Positions 29,445 to 46,955 of a stretch of DNA of 64,000 bases are shown here, piece by piece (position 1 is the stretch's first letter; every line of letters begins with the position of its first letter). The position numbers and the translations under genes were made by a program. Under the pieces are notes generated by a model, which saw only the letters and a list, made by a program, of their open reading frames with translations, did not search any database and was not told the DNA's origin. Source of the DNA: an uncultured Clostridia bacterium (lineage in GTDB: Bacteria; Bacillota; Clostridia; TANB77; CAG-508); assembly GCA_963559365.1 (NCBI GenBank), contig CAUWKC010000004.1, forward strand, positions 8,431 through 72,430. The letters are read 5' to 3'.

Positions 29445-30350
29445 ATGGGGGAGGAAAATAAAGTGGATTTCAAAGAAGAGCTAAAGAAATATCAGCAACA
29501 GGTTAATCAAGAATTAGAAAAACACATAAGAAAACAAAAATGTGCAGAAGAAAGATTAAACCAATCCATGGAATATAGTCTGATGGCAGGAGGAAAAAGA
29601 CTAAGACCAATTTTAGTTTTAGCTACTTATCAACTTTTCAATAAAGACATAAAAATTTGTATGCCTTATGCAGTAGCAATAGAAATGATACATAATTTTT
29701 CCCTAATTCATGATGACTTGCCAGGAATTGACAATGATGATATAAGGCACGGGAAACCAACAAATCATAAGCAATTTAACGAAGCAACAGCCATTTTAGC
29801 AGGAGATGGATTATTAAACAATGCTTATCAAGTTATAAGCAAAGACTTAATGAAAAGTGAACCAAAAGGGTTACCACAAAAAATAAAAATTTTTGAAGAA
29901 TTTACAGAAGCTGTTGATAGAATGATTGCAGGAGAATATGTAGACACAGAATTTGAAGGAAATAAAATAACACCAGAAGAATTGGAATATATTCACAAAA
30001 ACAAAACAGGAGCCTTATTAAAAATAAGTGTTAGAATGGGAGCAATATTAGGAGGCTGTACAAAAGAACAATTAAAGCAATTAACTGACTATGCAGAAAA
30101 AATAGGATTAGCATTTCAAATAAAAGATGACATTTTATCAGAAGAAGGAAATGAAGAAATTTTAGGAAAACCAGTAGGAAATGATAAAAAACTAGAAAAA
30201 TGTACATATGTATCACAATATGGTTTAGAAAAAGCGAAAGAAAAATTAGCAAAAATAATAGAAGAAGCAATAATTCAATTAAACGAATATGGAGAAAAAG
30301 CAGAATTTTTAAGACAATTAGCATACTATATCCAAAACAGAAACAAATGA
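29445..30350 (+). CDS. polyprenyl (farnesyl/geranylgeranyl) diphosphate synthase
   Basis: FARM LIHDDLPGIDNDDIRHGKPT and SARM FQIKDDILS. Alternative GTG start at 29463 has the better SD (GGAGG). Confidence 0.85.
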   Translation: MGEENKVDFKEELKKYQQQVNQELEKHIRKQKCAEERLNQSMEYSLMAGGKRLRPILVLATYQLFNKDIKICMPYAVAIEMIHNFSLIHDDLPGIDNDDIRHGKPTNHKQFNEATAILAGDGLLNNAYQVISKDLMKSEPKGLPQKIKIFEEFTEAVDRMIAGEYVDTEFEGNKITPEELEYIHKNKTGALLKISVRMGAILGGCTKEQLKQLTDYAEKIGLAFQIKDDILSEEGNEEILGKPVGNDKKLEKCTYVSQYGLEKAKEKLAKIIEEAIIQLNEYGEKAEFLRQLAYYIQNRNK

Positions 30351-30370
30351 TTTTGGAGTCGGAGGGAAAT

Positions 30371-31084
30371 ATGGAATTTAACAAAGAAAATATGCCAAAA
30401 CATATTGCAATAATTATGGATGGTAATAGAAGATGGGCAAAAGCAAAAGGAATGCCAGTTAGTTATGGACACAAAGAAGGAGCTAAAACACTTGAAAAAA
30501 TAGTTCGTTATGCCAATAAGATTGGTTTAGCCCATATTACAGTATATGCTTTTTCAACAGAAAATTGGAAAAGAGCAGAAGAAGAAGTAAAAGCATTAAT
30601 GATGTTACTTCAAAATTATTTAGACGATTATGCCAAAAGAGCAGACACAGAAAACATAAAAGTCAAAATATTAGGAGATATTTCTGCTTTATCACCTAAC
30701 ATGCAAAAAAGCATAAAAAAATGCATGGAAAGAACAAAAGATAATACAGGAGTAACTTTCAATATTGCATTGAACTATGGAGGAAGAGACGAATTAATCA
30801 AAGCGATTCAACAAATAGCAAGCCAAGCAAAAGATGGTAAAATTCAAATTGAAGATATAACAGAAGATAAAATTTCTGAATATTTATATACAAAAGGCCA
30901 ACCAGACCCAGACTTATTAATTAGAACTAGTGGGGAACAACGTTTAAGCAATTTTTTACCATGGCAATTAGTATATACGGAATTTTTATTTATTGATAAG
31001 AATTGGCCAGAGTTTGAAGAAGAAGATTTAGATAAAGCCATAATAGAATATCAAAAAAGAACTAGAAAATTTGGAGCAAATTAG
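30371..31084 (+). CDS. uppS: undecaprenyl diphosphate synthase
   Basis: PKHIAIIMDGNRRWAK and RTSGEQRLSNFLPWQ. ATG 30371 follows GGAGGGA. Confidence 0.9.
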   Translation: MEFNKENMPKHIAIIMDGNRRWAKAKGMPVSYGHKEGAKTLEKIVRYANKIGLAHITVYAFSTENWKRAEEEVKALMMLLQNYLDDYAKRADTENIKVKILGDISALSPNMQKSIKKCMERTKDNTGVTFNIALNYGGRDELIKAIQQIASQAKDGKIQIEDITEDKISEYLYTKGQPDPDLLIRTSGEQRLSNFLPWQLVYTEFLFIDKNWPEFEEEDLDKAIIEYQKRTRKFGAN

Positions 31085-36033: not shown

Positions 36034-36107
<74 letters not shown>

Positions 36108-36116
36108 ATTTTTGAA

Positions 36117-36471
36117 TGGTGGAGATGAGGAGAATCGAACTCCTGTCCATACTACTTTCCAAATAGACTTCTACAAGTTTAGTTTATCTTTTTTATTCAT
36201 TTTATTTTCACCGATAAACAGGTTAAAATAAAATATAGCTTTTATAATACCCTTTACTTTCAAAGCAAAAGTAAATTCGTTTCCCACATATTATGGCACT
36301 TTTCTAAAATTTGTGGGGAATTTTAGAAAAGCGTAGCCGCATCTTAGGCAGCTAATGCTAATTCTTGTTTATCAGCGTTTATATTTAAATTCTCGTTTTT
36401 TTAAGTGGCCAACGAGAATCCACTACTTGCTATCTATTTTTCTGGTAATATGTCGAAACCATTACATCCCC
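36117..36471 (-). ncRNA. ssrA: tmRNA (SsrA)
   Basis: 5' GGGGATGTAATGGTTTCGAC and 3' GGAGTTCGATTCTCCTCATCTCCACCA. Tag reading frame is GCT GAT AAA CAA GAA TTA GCA TTA GCT GCC TAA (36344-36376), giving ADKQELALAA. Confidence 0.9.
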
Positions 36472-37453: not shown

Positions 37454-38584
37454 TTATTGAAATTTTGTTATATCGTCAACTCTTCCTGCAAAATATGGCT
37501 TTGATTTTCCTTTTTCTCTTAAAAATATTGCAAAAGTATCATCAACATAAAAATATCTTGGCTCATCTTTTTCAGTTTCTGGTTTAAGTGAAACAATGTC
37601 TATTTTGGTATCTATGGCAGCTTCACTTTTAATTTCTCCACCTTTTTCATCTAAAGAAAATTTTATAGTTTGGATTGCTTTTTGTATTTCTGCAGTATCA
37701 TATTTTGGATCTGCTGTTTTAAATTCGTTGTTTGCTAATTCTGTATATTCTTTTTCTTGATTAAAAGTTAAATTTGGAGCTTTAAATTCATCTAAATATT
37801 CAAAAGATCTACTTCCTGTATATTTATCAGATTCATTATTCATATTTTCATATATTTCATTGAAACATTTTCCTTTAGGATTCTTACAAAATATTACCTC
37901 ATCATTAGTTGTGGTATTTATTAATAGTGCAAAGTCATTTTTTGAATTATAATATAGAACTTGAATTTGATTTCCTACTGATGCTTCGGTTTCATCATCT
38001 ATTCCAAAATATTCTACATCTTTGTATTTATTTCCGAATTTGTCATTATCTAATTTATCAAATTCTTTTAAAAATTCAAATTTTCTATATAACATTGTAT
38101 AAAAAAAGTATCTTCTAGAATCACTATTATTAGGATTATCTAATCCGTTTTCAGACCAATCAATTTTATTTAATATATCACTTGTTTGGTTAAATTTTTT
38201 CTTTATTTCACTTTCTATTGTTTCTTTTAATTTTAGATTTTTTATTCCATAAATTTTGAAATAGTAGTCTTCTGAAAGCATGGATTCATTAAAATCTTCT
38301 TTATTTAAATTTTTTACCATATCTAATTGTGGATTAAATACTATATCTTGTTTTACGACTTCGTTTTTCATGTCATTCCATATTAATTGAAATGTTCCAC
38401 ACCAACTGCTATCTTCTGTTATTGTATCATTCATTGTAGGTACAACTGTCATTTCTTTAACTGATTGTAATTTTGTTGTTGCAGTATTGCTAAATAAATT
38501 TGCTTTATTTAGCAGAATAATTCCAATTGTAAATATTGTTAATAAAATTATAAATACTATTAATATTTTCACTTTTTTGTCCAT
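37454..38584 (-). CDS. membrane-anchored serpin-like protein (divergent)
   Basis: N-terminal TM. C-terminus FYVDDTFAIFLREKGKSKPYFAGRVDDI matches the serpin signature F.VD.PF...I.E.....ILF.GRV. Hinge-like DEKGGEIKSEAAIDT lies upstream. Confidence 0.5.
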   Translation of the reverse strand: MDKKVKILIVFIILLTIFTIGIILLNKANLFSNTATTKLQSVKEMTVVPTMNDTITEDSSWCGTFQLIWNDMKNEVVKQDIVFNPQLDMVKNLNKEDFNESMLSEDYYFKIYGIKNLKLKETIESEIKKKFNQTSDILNKIDWSENGLDNPNNSDSRRYFFYTMLYRKFEFLKEFDKLDNDKFGNKYKDVEYFGIDDETEASVGNQIQVLYYNSKNDFALLINTTTNDEVIFCKNPKGKCFNEIYENMNNESDKYTGSRSFEYLDEFKAPNLTFNQEKEYTELANNEFKTADPKYDTAEIQKAIQTIKFSLDEKGGEIKSEAAIDTKIDIVSLKPETEKDEPRYFYVDDTFAIFLREKGKSKPYFAGRVDDITKFQ

Positions 38585-38640: not shown

Positions 38641-39106
38641 TCAACTTAAAATTGCACCTAAAATTAATATACCTAAATTATTATTATAAATTTCATCGAA
38701 TTGAGAAATAGGTAAAGGATTTTTTCCAATTCCTGCTTCGATAGTATAACCAGGGCGTTGATAAGTTTGGATAAACCAATCTTTATAACCAGCAAAACTA
38801 GAATTGTAAGGAGTATCAACTAATGAATAACCACTTGAGTTATCAAATTGTTGACCAATTTCAAGAGCATTGGAAGGATTAAAGTTTTGGAATTTCCAAT
38901 ATATTTCTTTGCCTTGTGTATGATAAGCAAGTACAAGTTTAAAATCATGTGATAAAGTGAAATTATAAATGGCTAGTGCTTCAGGCTCTGTTAGTGGACC
39001 GATATCCAACAAAATCTCGTGGAGCTGGACGATTAAATCCTTGTGAATATTTGATTTCTTTGGCATTTTCCCATCCGGCAGGAAATTGTAAGTTTAAGTC
39101 CACACC
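38641..39106 (-). pseudogene. 3' part of M14 gamma-D-glutamyl-(L)-meso-diaminopimelate peptidase gene (YqgT/ENP1-like), split by the island and frameshifted near 39001
   Basis: The minus strand reads GVDLNLQFPAGWENAKEIKYSQGFNRPAPRDFVGY in one frame. It then reads GPLTEPEALAIYNFTLSHDFKLVLAYHTQGKEIYWKF...GYKDWFIQ...PGYTIE in the next frame. Confidence 0.8.
39093..39106. repeat. attL core (TTTAAGTCCACACC)
   Basis: 13/14 identical to 49561-49574. Sits exactly where homology to the peptidase stops. Confidence 0.8.
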
Positions 39107-39927: not shown

Positions 39928-41247
39928 ATGTTTACAAGAATTTTTATTGATAATTTTCTAGGAATATCAGCTCCAGTAAAATTTGATTTTATTTCTCAAA
40001 GTAGAAATAAGGATAAGTTAAATTCAGTAATCAAAATAGAAGATGGAATATATGTAAATAAACTTATTGGAATAATTGGTGGAAATGCAAGCGGAAAAAC
40101 TAGTATTCTTACTGCAATAAATATGATTGGTCAAATATTAACATCTCCTATTTTACAGTTTGATTTAAATGATAAAATGGATAGTATACGTGAATTATTA
40201 GAAAAAGACAATAATATTGAAGAGAGAAAATTACTTAGAGATATGATAGATAGTATAAATTCAAGTACTGATATTGCAGTACAAAATTTACGACGAAAAG
40301 ATGAAGATACAAAAATAGAAGTTGAAATGTATATAACATCAAATGAAGAAGAGTTGACAGGATATTACACATATAAAGTAAAACTAAATGGAAAAAGTAA
40401 AAAAATAAAAAATGAATTTTTAGGATTTAGAAAAAAATATAAAGATAAGATTGAACCGATTATTCAAATAGAAGATGCAAGAGAGGGACAAGTATATTAT
40501 ATAAATAGATTTTTTAGAAACATAACAGATATTGATAGGAAAAGTAAAACTGAATTAGAGAGAAAATACAAATATTGCAAAGTTTTTGTTGAACACTATA
40601 TAAAGAATTCTGCAACAATTGATACTAGCGAAGATTGTAATTATAAAGAATTAAAATATATTGATTGGTATAAAAAATCACCTGAATCTTTAAGAACTTT
40701 AGTAAGAGTTGTTGATCCAAAAATAAAAGATGTAAAAATAGAAAATGACAGTAAGTATGAGGAATTAGTTTTTGTTTTAAAAGATGGAAGTAATATTACA
40801 AGGAGCATGCTATCTACAGGTACAGAAAGATTTTTAAATTTAATACGATATGTTAATGAAATAATAGACAAAAATGGTGTATTAGCAATTGATGAAATTG
40901 AACAAAATTTGCATAAAGATTTAGTAGAATTAATAATAAAACTATTTAGTGAAATGACACATAAAAATGCTCAAATTATTTTTACCACATTAAGCCCAGA
41001 AATTTTTGATATTGTAGATGAAAATAATAAAAAGATTTTTAAACAAGATACTATTTTTATCATTAATTGTGATAGTGATGATATTCAAATTGATAAATTA
41101 ATTGATTTACAAATTGATGGTGCAAGAGTGAATGGAGATGCTTCGGTAGCAAATCTTTATAAACGCAAAAAAATCTCATGTCATCCAGATAAAGAGCAAA
41201 TAGATTTATTTTTAAATAATTTCAAAAACAATACAATTGACTTTTAA
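39928..41247 (+). CDS. ABC-type/AAA_21-like ATPase (defence-associated family)
   Basis: Walker A GGNASGKTS, signature-like LSTGTERFLNL, Walker B/D-loop VLAIDEIEQNLH. Long helical insert between the lobes. Confidence 0.7.
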   Translation: MFTRIFIDNFLGISAPVKFDFISQSRNKDKLNSVIKIEDGIYVNKLIGIIGGNASGKTSILTAINMIGQILTSPILQFDLNDKMDSIRELLEKDNNIEERKLLRDMIDSINSSTDIAVQNLRRKDEDTKIEVEMYITSNEEELTGYYTYKVKLNGKSKKIKNEFLGFRKKYKDKIEPIIQIEDAREGQVYYINRFFRNITDIDRKSKTELERKYKYCKVFVEHYIKNSATIDTSEDCNYKELKYIDWYKKSPESLRTLVRVVDPKIKDVKIENDSKYEELVFVLKDGSNITRSMLSTGTERFLNLIRYVNEIIDKNGVLAIDEIEQNLHKDLVELIIKLFSEMTHKNAQIIFTTLSPEIFDIVDENNKKIFKQDTIFIINCDSDDIQIDKLIDLQIDGARVNGDASVANLYKRKKISCHPDKEQIDLFLNNFKNNTIDF

Positions 41248-41394
41248 ATAGTTAGTCGTTAAAGAAACAAAAGAAAAAGAGCCATACGAATATAGCCCAT
41301 AATAAGTATAAATTCCGCCAAGAATTCAATACATACTTATTATATAACAAATGATAATTTTTGTAAAGTAGCGAACTTTTGTATTGGTTCTTGG

Positions 41395-41480
41395 AAGGAG
41401 GACCATATGTTTTTAAAAATAAAATTTCAGAAACAGGAATAAATGGTCTAGAACAAATATGTTTTAGACCATTTTAAAAT
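41395..41480 (+). promoter_or_regulatory. leader: 11-codon uORF with strong SD plus 9-bp hairpin upstream of the MBL gene
   Basis: GGAAGGAGG then ATG 41408 (MFLKIKFQKQE, stop 41441-41443). AATGGTCTA (41443-41451) pairs with TAGACCATT (41466-41474). Confidence 0.35.
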
Positions 41481-41506
41481 TTGAATGATGAAAGGATTGA
41501 AGTAAA

Positions 41507-42391
41507 ATGAAAATTTATGTTTTAAGTTCGCAACAATGCGAGGATAGTAGTAAAAATAATGGGGATTGTTTTGTAATAGATAGTAGTAAGGAAATAGTAA
41601 TATATGATTGTGGTTGTGAGGAGTATGCTGATTGGGTAATGGATTATATGAAAGAGCATAATTATTCAAAAGCAAAAGTTGTATTATCACATAATGATGG
41701 TGATCATTTTAAAGGAATTCCAGTATTGGTGAATAACGAGAAAACATCTGAAATAACAACAGTGTTATTGTTAAAATATGTTGATGACATTTTAGATATT
41801 ATAGATGATGGAAGAAAGAATAGAGAATCTTTGAAAAGACAAATAAAAGATACATATGATAATATAGAACAACTATCAGGGCATAATTTGCAGGACGCAT
41901 TTGAACATGTAGAAATTGCAGAAGGAATTAAAATTTCTGGCCCTGGTAAAGATTATATTTTAAATGCTGCAGCAAAGGGATTAGATACTACAGAAGGAGA
42001 TACTATAGATAGTTCAACAATTACTAACGCTACAAGTATTCATTTAGAAATTAGTGCTGGAAATAAAAAAGTATTATTAACCGGAGATTCATCTTTTGAA
42101 TCAGTAATGAAAGAGAATTTAGAAGAGTTCAAAGTAATACAATTGCCACATCATGGAAATGCAGACATAGGAGAAAAGATATTTGAAGAAACAAAAGACG
42201 ATTTAGAAAAACAATATATAATTTCTGATAATACTGGAAATTCAAATGGAGGATCAGATAAATTAGATACAAAAGGGTATAGGGTAATGAGTACAAAAGA
42301 AAAAGGAATGCTAACTTTGGACGAAAATCAAATTTCACAAAATAGAAAAACTATTGGAAATTTAGGAATTTATGAGATATTTGATTTGTAA
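41507..42391 (+). CDS. cytoplasmic MBL-fold hydrolase of the ComEC/Rec2-type subfamily (putative nuclease)
   Basis: VLSHNDGDHFKG (H.D.DH metal motif), VLLTGDSS and QLPHHGN, in the order found in ComEC-type MBL domains. No signal peptide or TM. Confidence 0.6.
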   Translation: MKIYVLSSQQCEDSSKNNGDCFVIDSSKEIVIYDCGCEEYADWVMDYMKEHNYSKAKVVLSHNDGDHFKGIPVLVNNEKTSEITTVLLLKYVDDILDIIDDGRKNRESLKRQIKDTYDNIEQLSGHNLQDAFEHVEIAEGIKISGPGKDYILNAAAKGLDTTEGDTIDSSTITNATSIHLEISAGNKKVLLTGDSSFESVMKENLEEFKVIQLPHHGNADIGEKIFEETKDDLEKQYIISDNTGNSNGGSDKLDTKGYRVMSTKEKGMLTLDENQISQNRKTIGNLGIYEIFDL

Positions 42392-42827
42392 GAAAGATGT
42401 ATCAAATCAAGAAATTAATGCTAGAATGAAGTATATATATGATTTATTTCATATATATACTTTCAAAGACAGCAAAAATTCTGATGAAAACATAACTGTA
42501 TTAGTGAGTATTCCTACAAATGAATTAGATGCTTTAATACTAGTTGGTCATGATCCTATAACCAATAATTATATTATAAATAATATAGATTATATTCCAG
42601 AAAATAATATTATAGTTATTTCTTGTAACACAGGAAAAATAAGAAATTTAAAAGACATCAGAAATAAAAAAATATTTTTACCTAAAAAAACAGGAGAAAT
42701 AGATTATTATGATGGAGCTGAGATAGGCTTTGATTTTGACATTACTGATGAAGAAAATATACTGTATAGAAGTAGAAAGATGGATTTTTATACAATGATA
42801 ACAACTGCATTAGAAAGGATAGAATAA
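42372..42827 (+). CDS. hypothetical 151-aa protein with strand-His / strand-Cys pattern
   Basis: Overlaps the MBL gene by 20 nt. Contains ALILVGHD and NIIVISCNTGK; no known family recognised. Confidence 0.5.
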   Translation: MRYLICKKDVSNQEINARMKYIYDLFHIYTFKDSKNSDENITVLVSIPTNELDALILVGHDPITNNYIINNIDYIPENNIIVISCNTGKIRNLKDIRNKKIFLPKKTGEIDYYDGAEIGFDFDITDEENILYRSRKMDFYTMITTALERIE

Positions 42828-43301
42828 ATGGAAAAAATAATTGAGAAGATAGAGATTTATCACTTTATAAATTACCTTTTACCAGGTACTATATTTGTAG
42901 CAATATTTAATAAAATTTGCGGAAATGAATTTATAGACAGTAATGTTGTAATTGCAGTTATTGAATATTATTTTATAGGGTTGATATTAAGTAGAATTGG
43001 TTCAGTAATATTGCAACCAATATTTAAAAAGGCAAAACTAATAAAATATGCTGATTACAATAAATATATTAAAGCTAGTGAAAGTGATAATAAATTAGAG
43101 ATATTACAAAGAGAAGCTAATCAATATAGAACATATATAGCTACATTTATCATATTGGCAATTATTCAAAGCTATACTTGTATTGTAAATAAAAATTTTT
43201 CAATAATTTTAATACTTTTTGTTGGACTAGTTACATTATTCACAGTAGCATATAAAAAACAAATAAAGTTTATTGTAGATAGAGTTGAAAAAATATATTA
43301 G
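42828..43301 (+). CDS. hypothetical 4-TM membrane protein
   Basis: The ATG immediately follows the upstream TAA (42825-42830). Four hydrophobic segments. Confidence 0.55.
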   Translation: MEKIIEKIEIYHFINYLLPGTIFVAIFNKICGNEFIDSNVVIAVIEYYFIGLILSRIGSVILQPIFKKAKLIKYADYNKYIKASESDNKLEILQREANQYRTYIATFIILAIIQSYTCIVNKNFSIILILFVGLVTLFTVAYKKQIKFIVDRVEKIY

Positions 43302-43371: not shown

Positions 43372-44223
43372 TTGAACAACAATATTTTAAAAGCAATTAT
43401 TAATTTGGTGCAAACACCTTCATTTGAATTAAAAGAATATTATAGTAATCGTAATAGAGCAAATAGTATGGGAGATGCACTTGAAGAATATATAAAAGAT
43501 ATTTTTGCAGGTACATATGCAATAGCAAATGAACAAGAACGATTAGAAAAAATAAGTGAAGTATTTAGCTATTTAGGTAACAATTCTAATCCACCAGATG
43601 CAATGCTAAAGAAAGGTGATGCAATAGAAGTTAAAAAGATAGAAAATAATAATGCTTCATTAGCTTTGAATTCATCATATCCAAAACATAAATTGTTTGC
43701 AGATAGTCCAATGATAAGTTTACATTGTAGAGATGCAGAGGAATGGGATGAGAAGGATATAATTTATGCGGTTGGTGTAGTAGATAACAATAAATTGATG
43801 AATTTAAGTCTTGTTTATGGATTAGATTATTGTGCGAGTGAAGAAACATATACTAAAATAAAAACAAAAATTAAAGATGGAGTTGAAGCAATACCAGGAG
43901 TAGAGTTTTCAGAAACTAGAGAACTAGGTAGAGTTAATAAAGTAGATCCATTAGGAATTACATATTTAAGAGTTCGTGGAATGTGGGGAATAGAAAATCC
44001 ATGGACAGTGTTTAAATATATATATGAAAAGGATTTAAGTAAAGAGTTTAATTTTTTTGCAATAATAAATGAAGAAAAATATGCAGATTTTAGTAAAGAA
44101 GATAGAAAAGAATTTGAGGATTTTGTTAATAAAAGTGATTTAAATATGACAAAAGTAAAAATAAAAAATCCAGATAATCCAGCTATATTAAATGTAGCAT
44201 ATTTAATAACGTACAGCAAATAA
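43372..44223 (+). CDS. type II restriction endonuclease, NgoPII-like (predicted GGCC)
   Basis: [10 protein letters not shown]...[18 protein letters not shown]...[28 protein letters not shown] resembles my recollection of R.NgoPII. Adjacent to a HaeIII-like methylase. Confidence 0.6.
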
Positions 44224-44233
44224 GGAGGAATTT

Positions 44234-45211
44234 ATGAAAGTTATTAGTCTTTTTTCAGGGGCTGGTGGATTAGATTTAGGTTTTGAAAAAGCTGGTTTTG
44301 AAATAGAATGGGCAAATGAATTTGATAAATCAATATGGGAAACTTATGAGAAAAACCATAGCAATTATTTAGATAAAAGAGATATAAGAAAAATACCATT
44401 AAATGAGATTCCTGAATGTGATGGAATAATTGGAGGACCACCATGTCAAAGTTGGAGTGAAGCTGGAGCATGCAAAGGTATTAATGATGATAGAGGAAAA
44501 TTATTTTATGAATTTATAAAAATTTTAAATGACAAAAAACCAAAATTTTTTGTTGCAGAAAATGTATCAGGAATGCTTGCAGAAAAACATAAGGATGCAG
44601 TACAAAATTTTATAAAGATGTTTAAAGAAACAGGTTATGATGTTAATTTATATTTGGTAAATGCTTCTGATTATGGAGTGCCACAAGACAGAAAAAGGGT
44701 ATTTTACATAGGATTTAGAGAAGATTTAAATATAAAATTTGAATTTCCAAAACCATTATGTAAGAAAGTAAATTTAAAAGAGGCTATTGGAGATTTACAA
44801 GATACAGCTATTCCTGCATTAGAAAAAAATAAAACAAATGGAGCTTATTGTAAATTTCCCAATAATGAGTATATGACAGGGGGATTTTCTACTATATATA
44901 TGTCAAGAAATCGTGTTAGAAGTTGGGATGAACAATCATTTACAATACAAGCTGGAGGAAGACATGCTCCTATACATCCTCAAGCACCCAAAATGACATT
45001 TGTAGAAAAAAATAAGAGAGAATTTGTAAAAGGAAAAGAAGATTTATATAGAAGATTAACAGTTAGAGAATGTGCAAGAATTCAAACATTTCCAGATAAC
45101 TTTCAATTCTATTATACAGATGTAGCTGATGGATATAAGATGGTAGGCAATGCAGTTCCTGTTAAATTAGCTAATGTAGTTGCTAATGCAATAAAAAATA
45201 GTTTAGATTAA
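44234..45211 (+). CDS. DNA (cytosine-5)-methyltransferase, M.HaeIII-like (predicted GGCC)
   Basis: Motif [50 protein letters not shown]. The TRD ([11 protein letters not shown]...[31 protein letters not shown]) is collinear with M.HaeIII as I remember it. Confidence 0.85.
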
Positions 45212-45683
45212 TTTCAAAAAATTCGTGAACTGTGAATTAAATTTCATAGTGTTTTTATAAAAGACATTCTTCCGGCGGGCTAAAAAATGGTTTAGTAAAA
45301 ATTATCCGAACAGCAAAAATACTGTCAAAACATCAACCTGTTAGATTTTGAAAATTAAAATTTTAGATGATCAGAAGTGATTAAATAATTTATTAATAAT
45401 ATTATTACAAGAAGAAGTAAGGAATTTAATATTTTTATTAATTTTTTTACTTCTTTAATTTTAAATAAATTTATTGTATAAATTAATCAGTAATTATTGA
45501 AGAAATTTACAAAATATGGTATAAAATAAACAGTTATCTCATTTTAAAAATTTATTTCTTAATTGTTTGTATTCTAATCTTTTTATGGTTCTATTATTTC
45601 TATTGATATTAGAGTTGAAAAATTTCCAGTATTATAATATTATAATGTAAAATAATTATGAAGAATTGTTGCCAGGGGGAAAC

Positions 45684-46463
45684 ATGAATAATAATAAAGA
45701 GGATATAAAAGAGAAAAACTTAAAACAAATAGGAATAATAGTAAGTTTAATAATATTATTAGCTTTAATTGGTTATGCAATATTTCCAAACAGAGAAGAA
45801 TTATCAAACAATATTTCAACCGAAAATACACAAACAAATATAGTAAATAATATTCATACTAATGTTAGTATAAATGATATTCCAGAATATTCTGGACAAA
45901 TAGTTATTGACATTAATAATAATGTACCATATTTTAAAGATACAGAAATAACTACTGAAAATTTTGAATATTATTCACAACTTGATGAAATTGATAGAGC
46001 AGGTGCAGCTTTTGCAAATATATGTAGATATACAATGCCACCAGAAGGAACTAAAAGAGGAAGTTTATCATATAAGCCTACTGGTTGGGTTCAATATTTA
46101 TATGGAGAAAATAACAGAAAACATTTATATGAGAGATGCCATCTAATTGCATGGCAATTAGGAAATGAAAACAATAATAGACAAAATCTACTAACAGGCA
46201 CTGCACAGCTAAATGATGCTATGGTAGAATATGAAAATATAGTTGCAAATTGGATTAAACAAAAAAATAAGCAAAATAAAGATTATCATGTTTTATATAG
46301 AGTAACACCTATTTATGAAGATGAAAATAAGTTGGCAACTGGTGTAGAAATAGAAGCAAAATCTGTTGAAGAAGATGGAGTGTCTTTTAATAAATTTATA
46401 TATAATGTACAAGACAATTTTGAAATTGATTATAGAACAGGAGAAGCTAAATTATTAGAATAG
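45684..46463 (+). CDS. membrane-anchored DNA/RNA non-specific endonuclease (EndA/Endonuclease_NS_2-like)
   Basis: N-terminal anchor IGIIVSLIILLALIGYAIF. Also YYSQLDEIDRAGAA, YERCHLIAWQLGNENNNRQNLLTGT and YRVTPIY.. .LATGV.IEA.S. Confidence 0.7.
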   Translation: MNNNKEDIKEKNLKQIGIIVSLIILLALIGYAIFPNREELSNNISTENTQTNIVNNIHTNVSINDIPEYSGQIVIDINNNVPYFKDTEITTENFEYYSQLDEIDRAGAAFANICRYTMPPEGTKRGSLSYKPTGWVQYLYGENNRKHLYERCHLIAWQLGNENNNRQNLLTGTAQLNDAMVEYENIVANWIKQKNKQNKDYHVLYRVTPIYEDENKLATGVEIEAKSVEEDGVSFNKFIYNVQDNFEIDYRTGEAKLLE

Positions 46464-46478
46464 ATAAGGAGGAATAAT

Positions 46479-46955
46479 TTGAATTTAGGCTTAGATACAA
46501 TAATAGAAAAATTGGAACAAAATGATTTTATAAAAAATTTTATGCAAGAATTAAGTGAGACATTAGAAAAAATTAATAGTAGAAATGAATTAAAAGGTGA
46601 AAAAATGGATGATATTAAATTAACTCCTGAAGAAGATATGGAACTTTATAGAAAAAAATGGTCTTTTTTGGAAGGTTATTTTAGCAAGGAATTATCAGAC
46701 TTAAGTAAAGGTGATACATTTATTGTTACAGATAAGTATGAAAATGATTACGAATATCATAGATACAAAGTAACTCAATACAAAAATAATAAAGAATGTA
46801 AATATATTGCTTTTGAAAAAGATTTGCCAGAAAATATAAAATTAGGAGATGTCGTTAGAAAAGTTGATGGAAAATATATTTATGATGAACAGGCTACAAA
46901 ATATGTTACAGATTCTATAAATAAAATTAAAGAAGATATAATAAACAAACGCTAA
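46479..46955 (+). CDS. hypothetical acidic 158-aa protein (possible nuclease partner/inhibitor)
   Basis: TTG start 6 nt after AAGGAGG, 15 nt after the nuclease stop. No motif recognised. Confidence 0.45.
   Translation: MNLGLDTIIEKLEQNDFIKNFMQELSETLEKINSRNELKGEKMDDIKLTPEEDMELYRKKWSFLEGYFSKELSDLSKGDTFIVTDKYENDYEYHRYKVTQYKNNKECKYIAFEKDLPENIKLGDVVRKVDGKYIYDEQATKYVTDSINKIKEDIINKR

Follow-up and report, generated by a model that had tools for sequence, protein, structure and literature searches.

In this study, we analysed three tightly packed genes, ORF1 to ORF3 (open reading frames), that occupy positions 41507-43301 of a 64,000-nucleotide stretch of DNA from an uncultured Clostridia bacterium (contig CAUWKC010000004.1; hereafter the window, to which all coordinates refer). 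The trio encodes a hydrolase with the metallo-beta-lactamase (MBL) fold, a small orphan protein and a multi-transmembrane (TM) protein, and comparison with catalogued families identifies it as a new three-gene, ATPase-linked Firmicute variant of the two-gene candidate PDC-M48, with an orphan protein family. The cassette is real and widely conserved, and it is not categorically new: an earlier interpretation of the window (the sequence-only reading) had proposed an undescribed defence module, but the pair formed by ORF3 (PDC-M48A) and ORF1 (related to PDC-M48B) is already catalogued, and it is the three-gene form with ORF2 that is new. It can reasonably be read, in general terms, as a defence-type module on a mobile element, and the defence role that had been proposed is plausible from the homology to PDC-M48 and the mobile and defence context. 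The explanation that we prefer is that the trio most likely constitutes an anti-phage or anti-plasmid module carried on mobile elements, comprising a nuclease effector, a TM partner, ORF2 as regulator and an ATPase as sensor, a preference that is modest for the statement as a whole and weaker for each of its steps.

PDC-M48 is a two-gene 'phage defence candidate' in PADLOC-DB (CAS_00157, FAM_01875>>FAM_00178; 63 RefSeq occurrences) whose authors arrived at it through 'guilt-by-embedding', from genes lying inside BREX, DISARM and type I restriction-modification (R-M) loci, and list it among 145 untested candidates (Payne et al., bioRxiv 10.1101/2024.01.29.577857). Within the searchable literature, the string 'PDC-M48' was found only in a supplementary table of the PADLOC paper. 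ORF3 (42828-43301, plus strand, 157 residues) aligned with the PDC-M48A model PDLC04670 along nearly its entire length (1.1e-46; residues 1-155 against model positions 1-159 of 164). The match of ORF1 (41507-42391, plus strand, 294 residues) to the PDC-M48B model PDLC04676 was more restricted, comprising two partial stretches (5.2e-19; residues 16-172 against positions 15-182 of 357), and hhalign comparisons of residues 16-275 with M48B alignments gave 99.8% for the long group and 99.0% for the short group. The motif HxDxDH is present in 65 of 86 M48B-type proteins. By these sequence comparisons, ORF1 is a divergent PDC-M48B subfamily.

The description of ORF1 in the sequence-only reading as a cytoplasmic ComEC-type MBL protein with intact metal ligands is correct, as follows from its motifs, invariant ligands, fold and profile matches and hydropathy. 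The segments SHNDGDH, LLTGD and LPHHGN are present and form the ComEC-type motif set HxDxDH, NxxS, D and HHG, and in an alignment of 36 homologues (49-97% identity) the residues D20, H62, D64, D66, H67, D194, H215 and H216 are invariant. The AlphaFold2 model of ORF1 (predicted local distance difference test, pLDDT, 85) had as its top Foldseek match in the PDB the beta-lactamase-like domain of ComEC (9ic4; E 6.7e-10, template-modelling scores 0.58/0.63), followed by the type VII CRISPR protein Cas14, the phosphorylcholine esterase Pce and nucleases of the RNase J/CPSF/IntS11 type. The same chain, 9ic4, was the best PDB sequence match of the ORF1 family profile, with correspondence of hnDdDH to HPDADH, NatS to NNNS and LPHHG to VPHHG. 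ORF1 is longer than ComEC by ~30 residues in the stretch from motif 2 to motif 3, which includes a conserved acidic loop modelled with low confidence at residues 161-170. No hydrophobic segment was detected (maximum 19-residue Kyte-Doolittle mean 1.06), in keeping with the expected lack of a channel or signal peptide, and neither the competence channel domain (PF03772) nor the N-terminal OB fold was found with Pfam and NCBIfam. Among family models, ORF1 matched Pfam Lactamase_B (6.6e-8) and, in addition to PDC-M48B, the PADLOC models RTasMBL (4e-14), LmuA (6e-12) and Avs1a (3e-9). The match to NCBIfam Avs1a was weak and partial (1.9e-12; 46.6 bits against a cut-off of 420), that to TIGR00361 reached 26.7 bits against a cut-off of 190, and some homologues had faint Pfam matches to Apyc1. 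ORF1 is a putative Zn-dependent nuclease.

The packing of the three genes that had been taken to indicate a single operon is visible in the sequence itself. ORF1 overlaps ORF2 (42372-42827, plus strand, 151 residues) by 20 nt (42372-42391), the TAA stop codon of ORF2 (42825-42827) directly abuts the ATG of ORF3 (42828-42830), and a purine-rich Shine-Dalgarno-like element precedes each of the three starts. We collected an ORF1-anchored sample of 80 loci from reference genomes and analysed it with our own ORF calls and iterated hidden Markov models; the loci come mostly from gut and rumen metagenome-assembled genomes of Clostridia, Lachnospiraceae, Oscillospiraceae and Bacilli, together with Blautia, Sellimonas, Anaerocolumna and a few non-Firmicutes. 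The tight spacing is repeated in ~80 other genomes: with a single exception among 81 loci, the MBL gene overlaps ORF2 or is separated from it by no more than 7 nt, a 4-nt ATGA overlap being commonest, and the gap from ORF2 to the third gene is mostly -4 to +14 nt. Since close spacing has been kept across these 81 loci, the packing of the trio is not due to chance. An ORF2 homologue lies directly 3' of the MBL gene in all 77 loci whose sequence continues past the MBL gene, even where the TM protein has been swapped, and a multi-TM third gene nearly always follows, which substantiates the operon of co-occurring genes. The flanks are not housekeeping operons; among 150 proteins encoded in the flanks of 24 non-redundant loci, integrases, transposases, RepA, type I and II R-M components, AbiEi/AbiEii and Schlafen/AlbA_2 proteins predominate.

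Four TM helices had been predicted for ORF3, and while its multi-TM character stands, the count is three or four, in a 2+2 layout: hydropathy identified two strong C-terminal TM segments, a clear one at residues ~38-60 and a weaker one at ~10-30, with a hydrophilic loop at residues 63-100 between the TM pairs. Invariant polar residues are present in the family. ORF3 also matched phrog_11864 (4.5e-31); the only PADLOC models that it matched were those for PDC-M48A, and it has no relatives in Pfam, NCBIfam or the PDB. SLATT, holin and other known membrane effectors were considered and rejected, there being no recurrent Pfam match in 52 family members and no PDB match. The gene that follows ORF2 encodes an ORF3-type TM protein in 41 loci, an unrelated 4-TM protein of ~235 residues, also with a 2+2 layout, in 28 loci, and otherwise other multi-TM proteins; only four loci have no co-oriented third gene. 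Homology between the ORF3-type and ~235-residue proteins was rejected (hhalign probability <1%), and the latter is therefore an analogous replacement. A second, canonical PDC-M48B gene lies between ORF2 and the TM gene in loci L001-L003 and L016.

A search anchored on ORF3 extended the distribution of the MBL and TM pair considerably, to 505 or more loci in metagenomes of soil, sediment, fresh water and sea water and to 10 viral contigs. Among 90 such loci, metagenomic and viral and independent of one another, almost every one has the TM gene directly beside an MBL gene, in either order, yet none of their 739 ORFs matched the ORF2 profile and the ATPase is present in only two. Because these 90 loci lack ORF2, the MBL and TM genes constitute the widespread core and ORF2 is an add-on of the ORF1-type MBL subfamily. 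The canonical pair is found between gpA and the genome end in the P2-like phages P2_4E6b, D8, 11W and 12W, a position that is the gpA-gpQ anti-phage hotspot of Rousset et al. It is also found on Clostridium perfringens plasmids of 12-14 kb and in 45 of the 5,426 complete genomes of E. coli, in which the NCBI Prokaryotic Genome Annotation Pipeline (PGAP) names the MBL 'ComEC/Rec2 family competence protein', in agreement with the ComEC branch assigned to ORF1. As a side observation, the 'tail protein' annotated at 29621-30706 of Peduovirus P24E6b (NC_049389.1; L176:4504-5589) is actually a ComEC-like MBL that partners a PDC-M48A TM protein in that hotspot, and phrog_7043 bears the same label.

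Upstream of the trio, the window has an AbiLi/AriA-like ABC ATPase of the AAA_21 type (39928-41247, plus strand; Pfam AAA_21 6.4e-16, PADLOC AbiLi 2e-37 and AriA 3.9e-17). Upstream partners were counted in the 68 loci whose sequence extends at least 1.8 kb upstream, and an ATPase homologous to that of the window adjoins the cassette in 39 of them (57%), co-oriented in 13 and divergent in 26. The window ATPase is 36% identical to that of L001, with conserved synteny, and the relative in L020 has an AbiLi score of 4e-65. Loci L057 and L059 have the ORF3-type TM gene beyond the divergent ATPase gene instead of 3' of ORF2 (TM and ATPase on the minus strand, MBL and ORF2 on the plus strand), and this rearrangement, which keeps the TM gene beside the ATPase, argues that all four genes work together. 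The sequence-only reading had treated the ATPase as a neighbouring gene; it does adjoin the trio, but it is probably a facultative fourth component rather than a mere neighbour. No TOPRIM or DUF4435 match (AbiLii/AriB) was found in ORF1-3, and in relatives no additional gene consistently accompanies the ATPase as a partner. In another 12 of the 68 loci (18%), a divergent HTH_3 and M78 peptidase pair that matches PADLOC CapH/CapP lies 5' of the cassette; these belong to the L060-L079 group (e.g., L063:5829-6798), which has DpnII R-M systems immediately downstream. The remaining 17 loci have neither ATPase nor CapH/CapP upstream.

ORF2, an orphan cytoplasmic alpha/beta protein and the obligate partner of the ORF1-type MBL, had no match in Pfam, PADLOC, PHROGs or NCBIfam. 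When 1.84 billion representatives were searched with its profile, a family of 205 clusters emerged, all of them standalone proteins of ~140-170 residues with zero fusions, and no homologues were found in viral contigs and plasmids. It lacks a hydrophobic segment by hydropathy. In an 82-member alignment Cys85 is invariant and R18, G59, H60, G115, F122 and E128 are at least 90% conserved. His60 is retained in 67 of 81 loci; it is Asp or Asn in 14 of the 15 CapH/CapP-linked loci, one of which keeps it, and is present in all 66 others, so that the clade with a CapH/CapP-like pair is exactly the clade in which His60 has been replaced. The sequence-only reading had noted the segments LILVGHD and IIVISCNTG, both of which we confirmed, and had taken them as a hint of a caspase/CHAT-type dyad. 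That hint found no support: at E<=1, not one of the 82 sequences matched Peptidase_C14, CHAT or the profile of any other protease family, and the family profile found no PDB chain. The AlphaFold2 model of ORF2 is poor (pLDDT 52), and on this model Foldseek returned generic Rossmann-like fragments (best E 0.11) and no caspase matches. As these profile, PDB and fold searches were negative and His60 is lost in one clade, the caspase/CHAT idea is unsupported and was rejected, bearing in mind that the fold search used a poor model. An origin of ORF2 as a split-off domain of longer PDC-M48B proteins was likewise rejected (hhalign probability <1%).

A Cys-dependent activity of ORF2 is nevertheless possible, and the first of the alternative explanations builds on it. 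ORF2 may be a novel minimal cysteine protease (Cys85/His60/Glu128) or covalent-catalysis enzyme that cleaves a latent pro-nuclease, ORF1, by analogy with the trypsin-, caspase- and subtilisin-like activation of HamM- and Avs-type MBLs. Experiments have shown that defence MBLs related to ORF1 are Zn-dependent double-stranded DNases, and that HamM and the Avs- and DRT-linked MBLs are pro-nucleases that become active double-stranded DNases after cleavage by an adjacent protease (2025; PMC12642450, PMC12799240). The relatives of ORF1 in defence are zymogens that linked proteases, including a caspase-like clade, activate; the invariant Cys and near-invariant Gly-His of ORF2 each end a hydrophobic strand, with Arg18 and Glu128 also strongly conserved; ORF2 is strictly coupled to the ORF1-type subfamily; and the ~30-residue insertion of ORF1, with its acidic loop, would suit such a reading. 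However, there is the failure of all protease profiles and PDB searches, together with the uninformative Rossmann-like fold matches, and trypsin-, caspase- and subtilisin-like proteases also had no profile match in the flanking genes. Furthermore, 151 residues is small for a clan CD protease, the proposed His is Asp or Asn in nearly all CapH/CapP-linked loci, and the canonical PDC-M48 pair works, if at all, without ORF2. We consider this explanation unlikely, if one of the two strongest rivals to the preferred one.

The 259-nt spacer between the ATPase gene and ORF1 (41248-41506) is conserved in relatives with a co-oriented ATPase, and has features of a regulatory leader. A first hairpin (41385-41405, plus strand), found by a terminator scan, encloses the GGAGG Shine-Dalgarno sequence of a mini-ORF of 11 codons (41407-41442, plus strand; MFLKIKFQKQE*); it folds in every lineage, and RNAalifold assigned it eight pairs, three of which have compensatory changes. 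In five lineages the Shine-Dalgarno sequence and ATG and a mini-ORF length of 10-11 codons are kept despite divergent sequence, with (L/I/Q)E* at the end of the mini-ORF; a length in that range has a chance probability of ~0.07 per lineage. A second, terminator- or attenuator-like hairpin with a U-rich tract (41441-41483, plus strand; 15-bp stem at 41441-41474) overlaps the mini-ORF stop. The window leader folds with z = -4.9, and hairpin 2 has z of -2.4 to -7.3 in five of six lineages, its arms differing between lineages yet remaining complementary. No Rfam match was found for the leader. From its sequence, then, the spacer looks like a leader-peptide-controlled terminator or attenuator that would gate the trio; a ribosome finishing the leader peptide would cover the 5' arm of hairpin 2. 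This gate and the CapH/CapP control in another clade suggest that the cassette is kept off owing to its toxicity. A conserved palindrome at ~41345-41368 (ACAAA-N8-TTTGT in the window, TACAAAT-N6-ATTTGTA in relatives) adjoins a TATTATA box and is a candidate promoter/operator of the trio; a scan for sigma-70 promoters was uninformative in this AT-rich DNA (86 sites observed against 96.5 expected).

Potentially, these components are combined as follows in the anti-phage or anti-plasmid module that we prefer. ORF1 would supply the enzymatic activity as effector, being a Zn-dependent DNase from the broad ComEC-like class to which the recently characterised defence pro-nucleases belong. ORF3, or the unrelated 4-TM protein elsewhere, may tether or co-activate it at the membrane, or may be a second, membrane-damaging effector. 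ORF2 would be a dedicated regulatory subunit of the ORF1-type MBL subfamily, made in a fixed ratio with ORF1 through the overlapping start and stop codons, and could use its invariant Cys either to hold the nuclease inactive or to license it. The AbiLi/AriA-like ATPase, in just over half of the loci, may serve as the infection sensor or as a sequestering scaffold, by analogy with PARIS, AbiL and Septu-type systems. Expression would be gated because the cassette is probably toxic, by the leader mini-ORF and terminator hairpin in the window lineage and by the CapH/CapP-type repressor and protease in another.

Several points weigh against this explanation. The defence role of the trio, as that of PDC-M48, is argued from guilt by association, and the defence-neighbour counts in the cassette flanks are modest. 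The likeness of ORF1 to proven pro-nucleases is weak, its scores being far below family cut-offs, and the substrate of the MBL could be other than DNA. The role given to ORF2 is a guess, because the family has no detectable relatives and its AlphaFold2 model is unreliable. The loci that have neither ATPase nor CapH/CapP upstream imply that the cassette does not depend on the ATPase, and since a terminator-like hairpin separates them, ATPase and trio may be independent units.

About as improbable as the protease explanation is that the cassette is an addiction or stabilisation module, in which the MBL and/or TM protein is a toxin and ORF2 the antidote, and which would stabilise its island or plasmid with no direct anti-phage role. 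Its location on mobile islands, small plasmids and prophages agrees with this, as do the tight translational coupling of a small protein to a potentially toxic enzyme and the tightly gated expression. Yet ORF2 cannot be a universal antidote because of the widespread two-gene form that lacks it, and the links to an AbiLi-like ATPase, CapH/CapP and the P2 hotspot are typical of defence systems. This explanation also overlaps the defence module, as many defence systems are toxin-antitoxin-like.

A slightly longer shot combines elements of the above: ORF2 might be a new class of minimal Cys-dependent activator (a protease or covalent catalyst) that licenses a ComEC-like pro-nuclease held at the membrane by a 4-TM partner, the cassette as a whole being turned on by a translation-sensing leader attenuator and/or an AbiLi-like ATPase. 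Were this true, the 'nuclease-protease pair' logic, described in 2025, would gain a fourth solution with no structural relation to the others, and the cassette would be a defence operon that disturbed translation induces.

Still less probable is that ORF1 is a small-molecule hydrolase (acting on a cyclic nucleotide, phosphocholine ester, antibiotic or quorum signal) with ORF3 as transporter or anchor, and a function in anti-defence, resistance or the cell envelope. MBL-fold enzymes are chemically diverse, Foldseek matched a phosphodiesterase as well as Pce, and there are the faint Apyc1 matches. The best fold and profile matches are nevertheless ComEC and beta-CASP nucleases, the HxDxDH/NxxS/HHG set is of the ComEC type, ORF3 is too small (157 residues) and too swappable with an unrelated 4-TM protein for a specific transporter, and the links to an ABC-ATPase and CapH/CapP do not fit. 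A housekeeping or competence role, as a split ComEC-like apparatus for DNA uptake or processing, has in its favour that ComEC is the closest solved fold and that PGAP labels relatives ComEC/Rec2, but is essentially refuted by the domain content of ORF1, which has neither channel domain nor OB fold, by the patchy, mobile-element-borne distribution and by the non-housekeeping flanks.

The placement of the trio on a mobile island beside the ATPase and a type II R-M system, proposed from the window alone, was borne out by a recombinase gene and repeat cores. The island is flanked by an imperfect direct repeat, TTTAA(G/A)TCCACACC, whose identical 8-bp cores, TCCACACC, lie 10,468 bp apart at the left (39099-39106) and right (49567-49574) junctions. 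Between them are a Rep/HTH_36-like gene, the ATPase gene, the trio, an NgoPII-type R-M system, an Endonuclease_NS_2 gene with a small gene, and a large serine recombinase gene (47846-49474, plus strand; Pfam Resolvase, Recombinase and Zn_ribbon_recom) that adjoins the right junction and would mobilise the ~10.5-kb island. The R-M system (43372-45211, plus strand), a separate defence system on the island, comprises a restriction endonuclease (43372-44223; Pfam RE_NgoPII 1.3e-113) and a C5 methyltransferase (44234-45211; DNA_methylase 2.5e-103), which matched PADLOC REase_II and MTase_II. The Endonuclease_NS_2 DNA/RNA non-specific endonuclease (45666-46463; 2e-20) has an N-terminal hydrophobic segment and is followed by a 158-residue protein with a weak DUF3006 match (46479-46955); the pair may be a secreted nuclease and its immunity or partner protein. 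No near-identical island was found in sequenced phages or plasmids.

The island splits a minus-strand gene for an M14/MpaA-like peptidase into fragments at 38641-39093 and 49582-50031 (the latter N-terminal), and core-to-core deletion restores a minus-strand motif whose alignment to the M14 amidase MpaA spans the joint. Neither outer fragment shares the reading frame of this restored centre, which implies at least two extra frameshifts, through gene decay after insertion, or assembly indels. Elsewhere in the window, the same-strand ORF pairs 28146-28862/28760-29428 and 29445-30350/30200-31084 overlap by 100-150 nt and may be frameshifted genes; they would fit the M14 frameshifts if the assembly has indel errors. 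A tRNA-Gly(tcc) gene and a tmRNA gene (tag ADKQELALAA) at 36034-36471 are ~2.6 kb left of the island and are not its insertion site. The insertion site is adjoined by a gene for a 376-residue protein (37454-38584, minus strand) that begins with a TM or signal segment and whose C-terminal part weakly matches serpin (3.8e-5, a score under the Pfam cut-off).

The wider interest of the cassette lies in its pairing. Work from 2025 showed that MBL-fold pro-nucleases recur as death effectors in bacterial immunity and that each is paired with a protease; the related MBL here is paired with a TM protein. That pair, PDC-M48, is widespread and occupies the P2 phage defence hotspot, and in gut and rumen Firmicutes it is joined by a small orphan protein that has an invariant cysteine. 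Should the cassette prove active, this would validate a catalogued candidate, define the role of a membrane partner for a nuclease effector (tethering at the site of DNA entry, or a second effector) and give a function to ORF2, a protein family without relatives. In addition, its interchangeable controllers (AbiLi-like ATPase, CapH/CapP and leader attenuator) would make it a compact model of one effector cassette plugged into different sensors.

Among known systems, the architecture of a hydrolase with a membrane protein in prophage and satellite hotspots is that of Rst_Hydrolase-3Tm (DefenseFinder), and such a resemblance had been suggested. It holds for the architecture but not for homology: the validated hotspot system has a HAD-like hydrolase (Rousset et al. 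2022), not an MBL-fold one, so it is an architectural analogy only and the trio was not assigned to it. 6A-MBL, also considered as a relative, is an unrelated ubiquitin-like system. ComEC/Rec2 has the closest solved fold and motif set, but ORF1 is a standalone cytoplasmic protein of 294 residues, lacking channel and OB domains, on a mobile island. AbiL and PARIS resemble the window locus in having an AbiLi- and AriA-like ATPase (AbiLi 2e-37, up to 4e-65 in relatives) beside a nuclease-type effector; they pair that ATPase with a TOPRIM/OLD nuclease, whereas the effector here would be an MBL with two accessory genes and the ATPase is optional and often divergent.

The protease-activated MBL pro-nucleases (HamM of HamMAB; the MBL linked to Avs1a, Avs2 and Avs4; the DRT and ABC-3C MBL modules), whose activation involves the cleavage of two inhibitory linkers, share with the trio a ComEC-like MBL fold, an adjacent dedicated partner gene and diverse sensors that include ABC ATPases, and ORF1 weakly matches the Avs1a, RTasMBL and LmuA models. 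They differ in that the partners here are an orphan 151-residue protein and a membrane protein, with no recognisable protease nearby, and in the distance of ORF1 from the NCBIfam Avs1a cut-off. The closest counterpart is PDC-M48 itself, with a full-length M48A protein in ORF3, an M48B homologue in ORF1 that has the HxDxDH motif in common, and mobile and defence contexts. Compared with the canonical form, in which A and B are directly adjacent in either order and lack ORF2, the window and its ORF1-type relatives have ORF2 after the MBL gene, giving the order MBL-ORF2-TM in the window; their MBL is a distinct subfamily, the window protein matching only about half of one M48B model; their TM protein can be exchanged for a 4-TM one of unrelated family; and an AbiLi-like ATPase is linked to 57% of their loci, as against 2 of 90 canonical ones.

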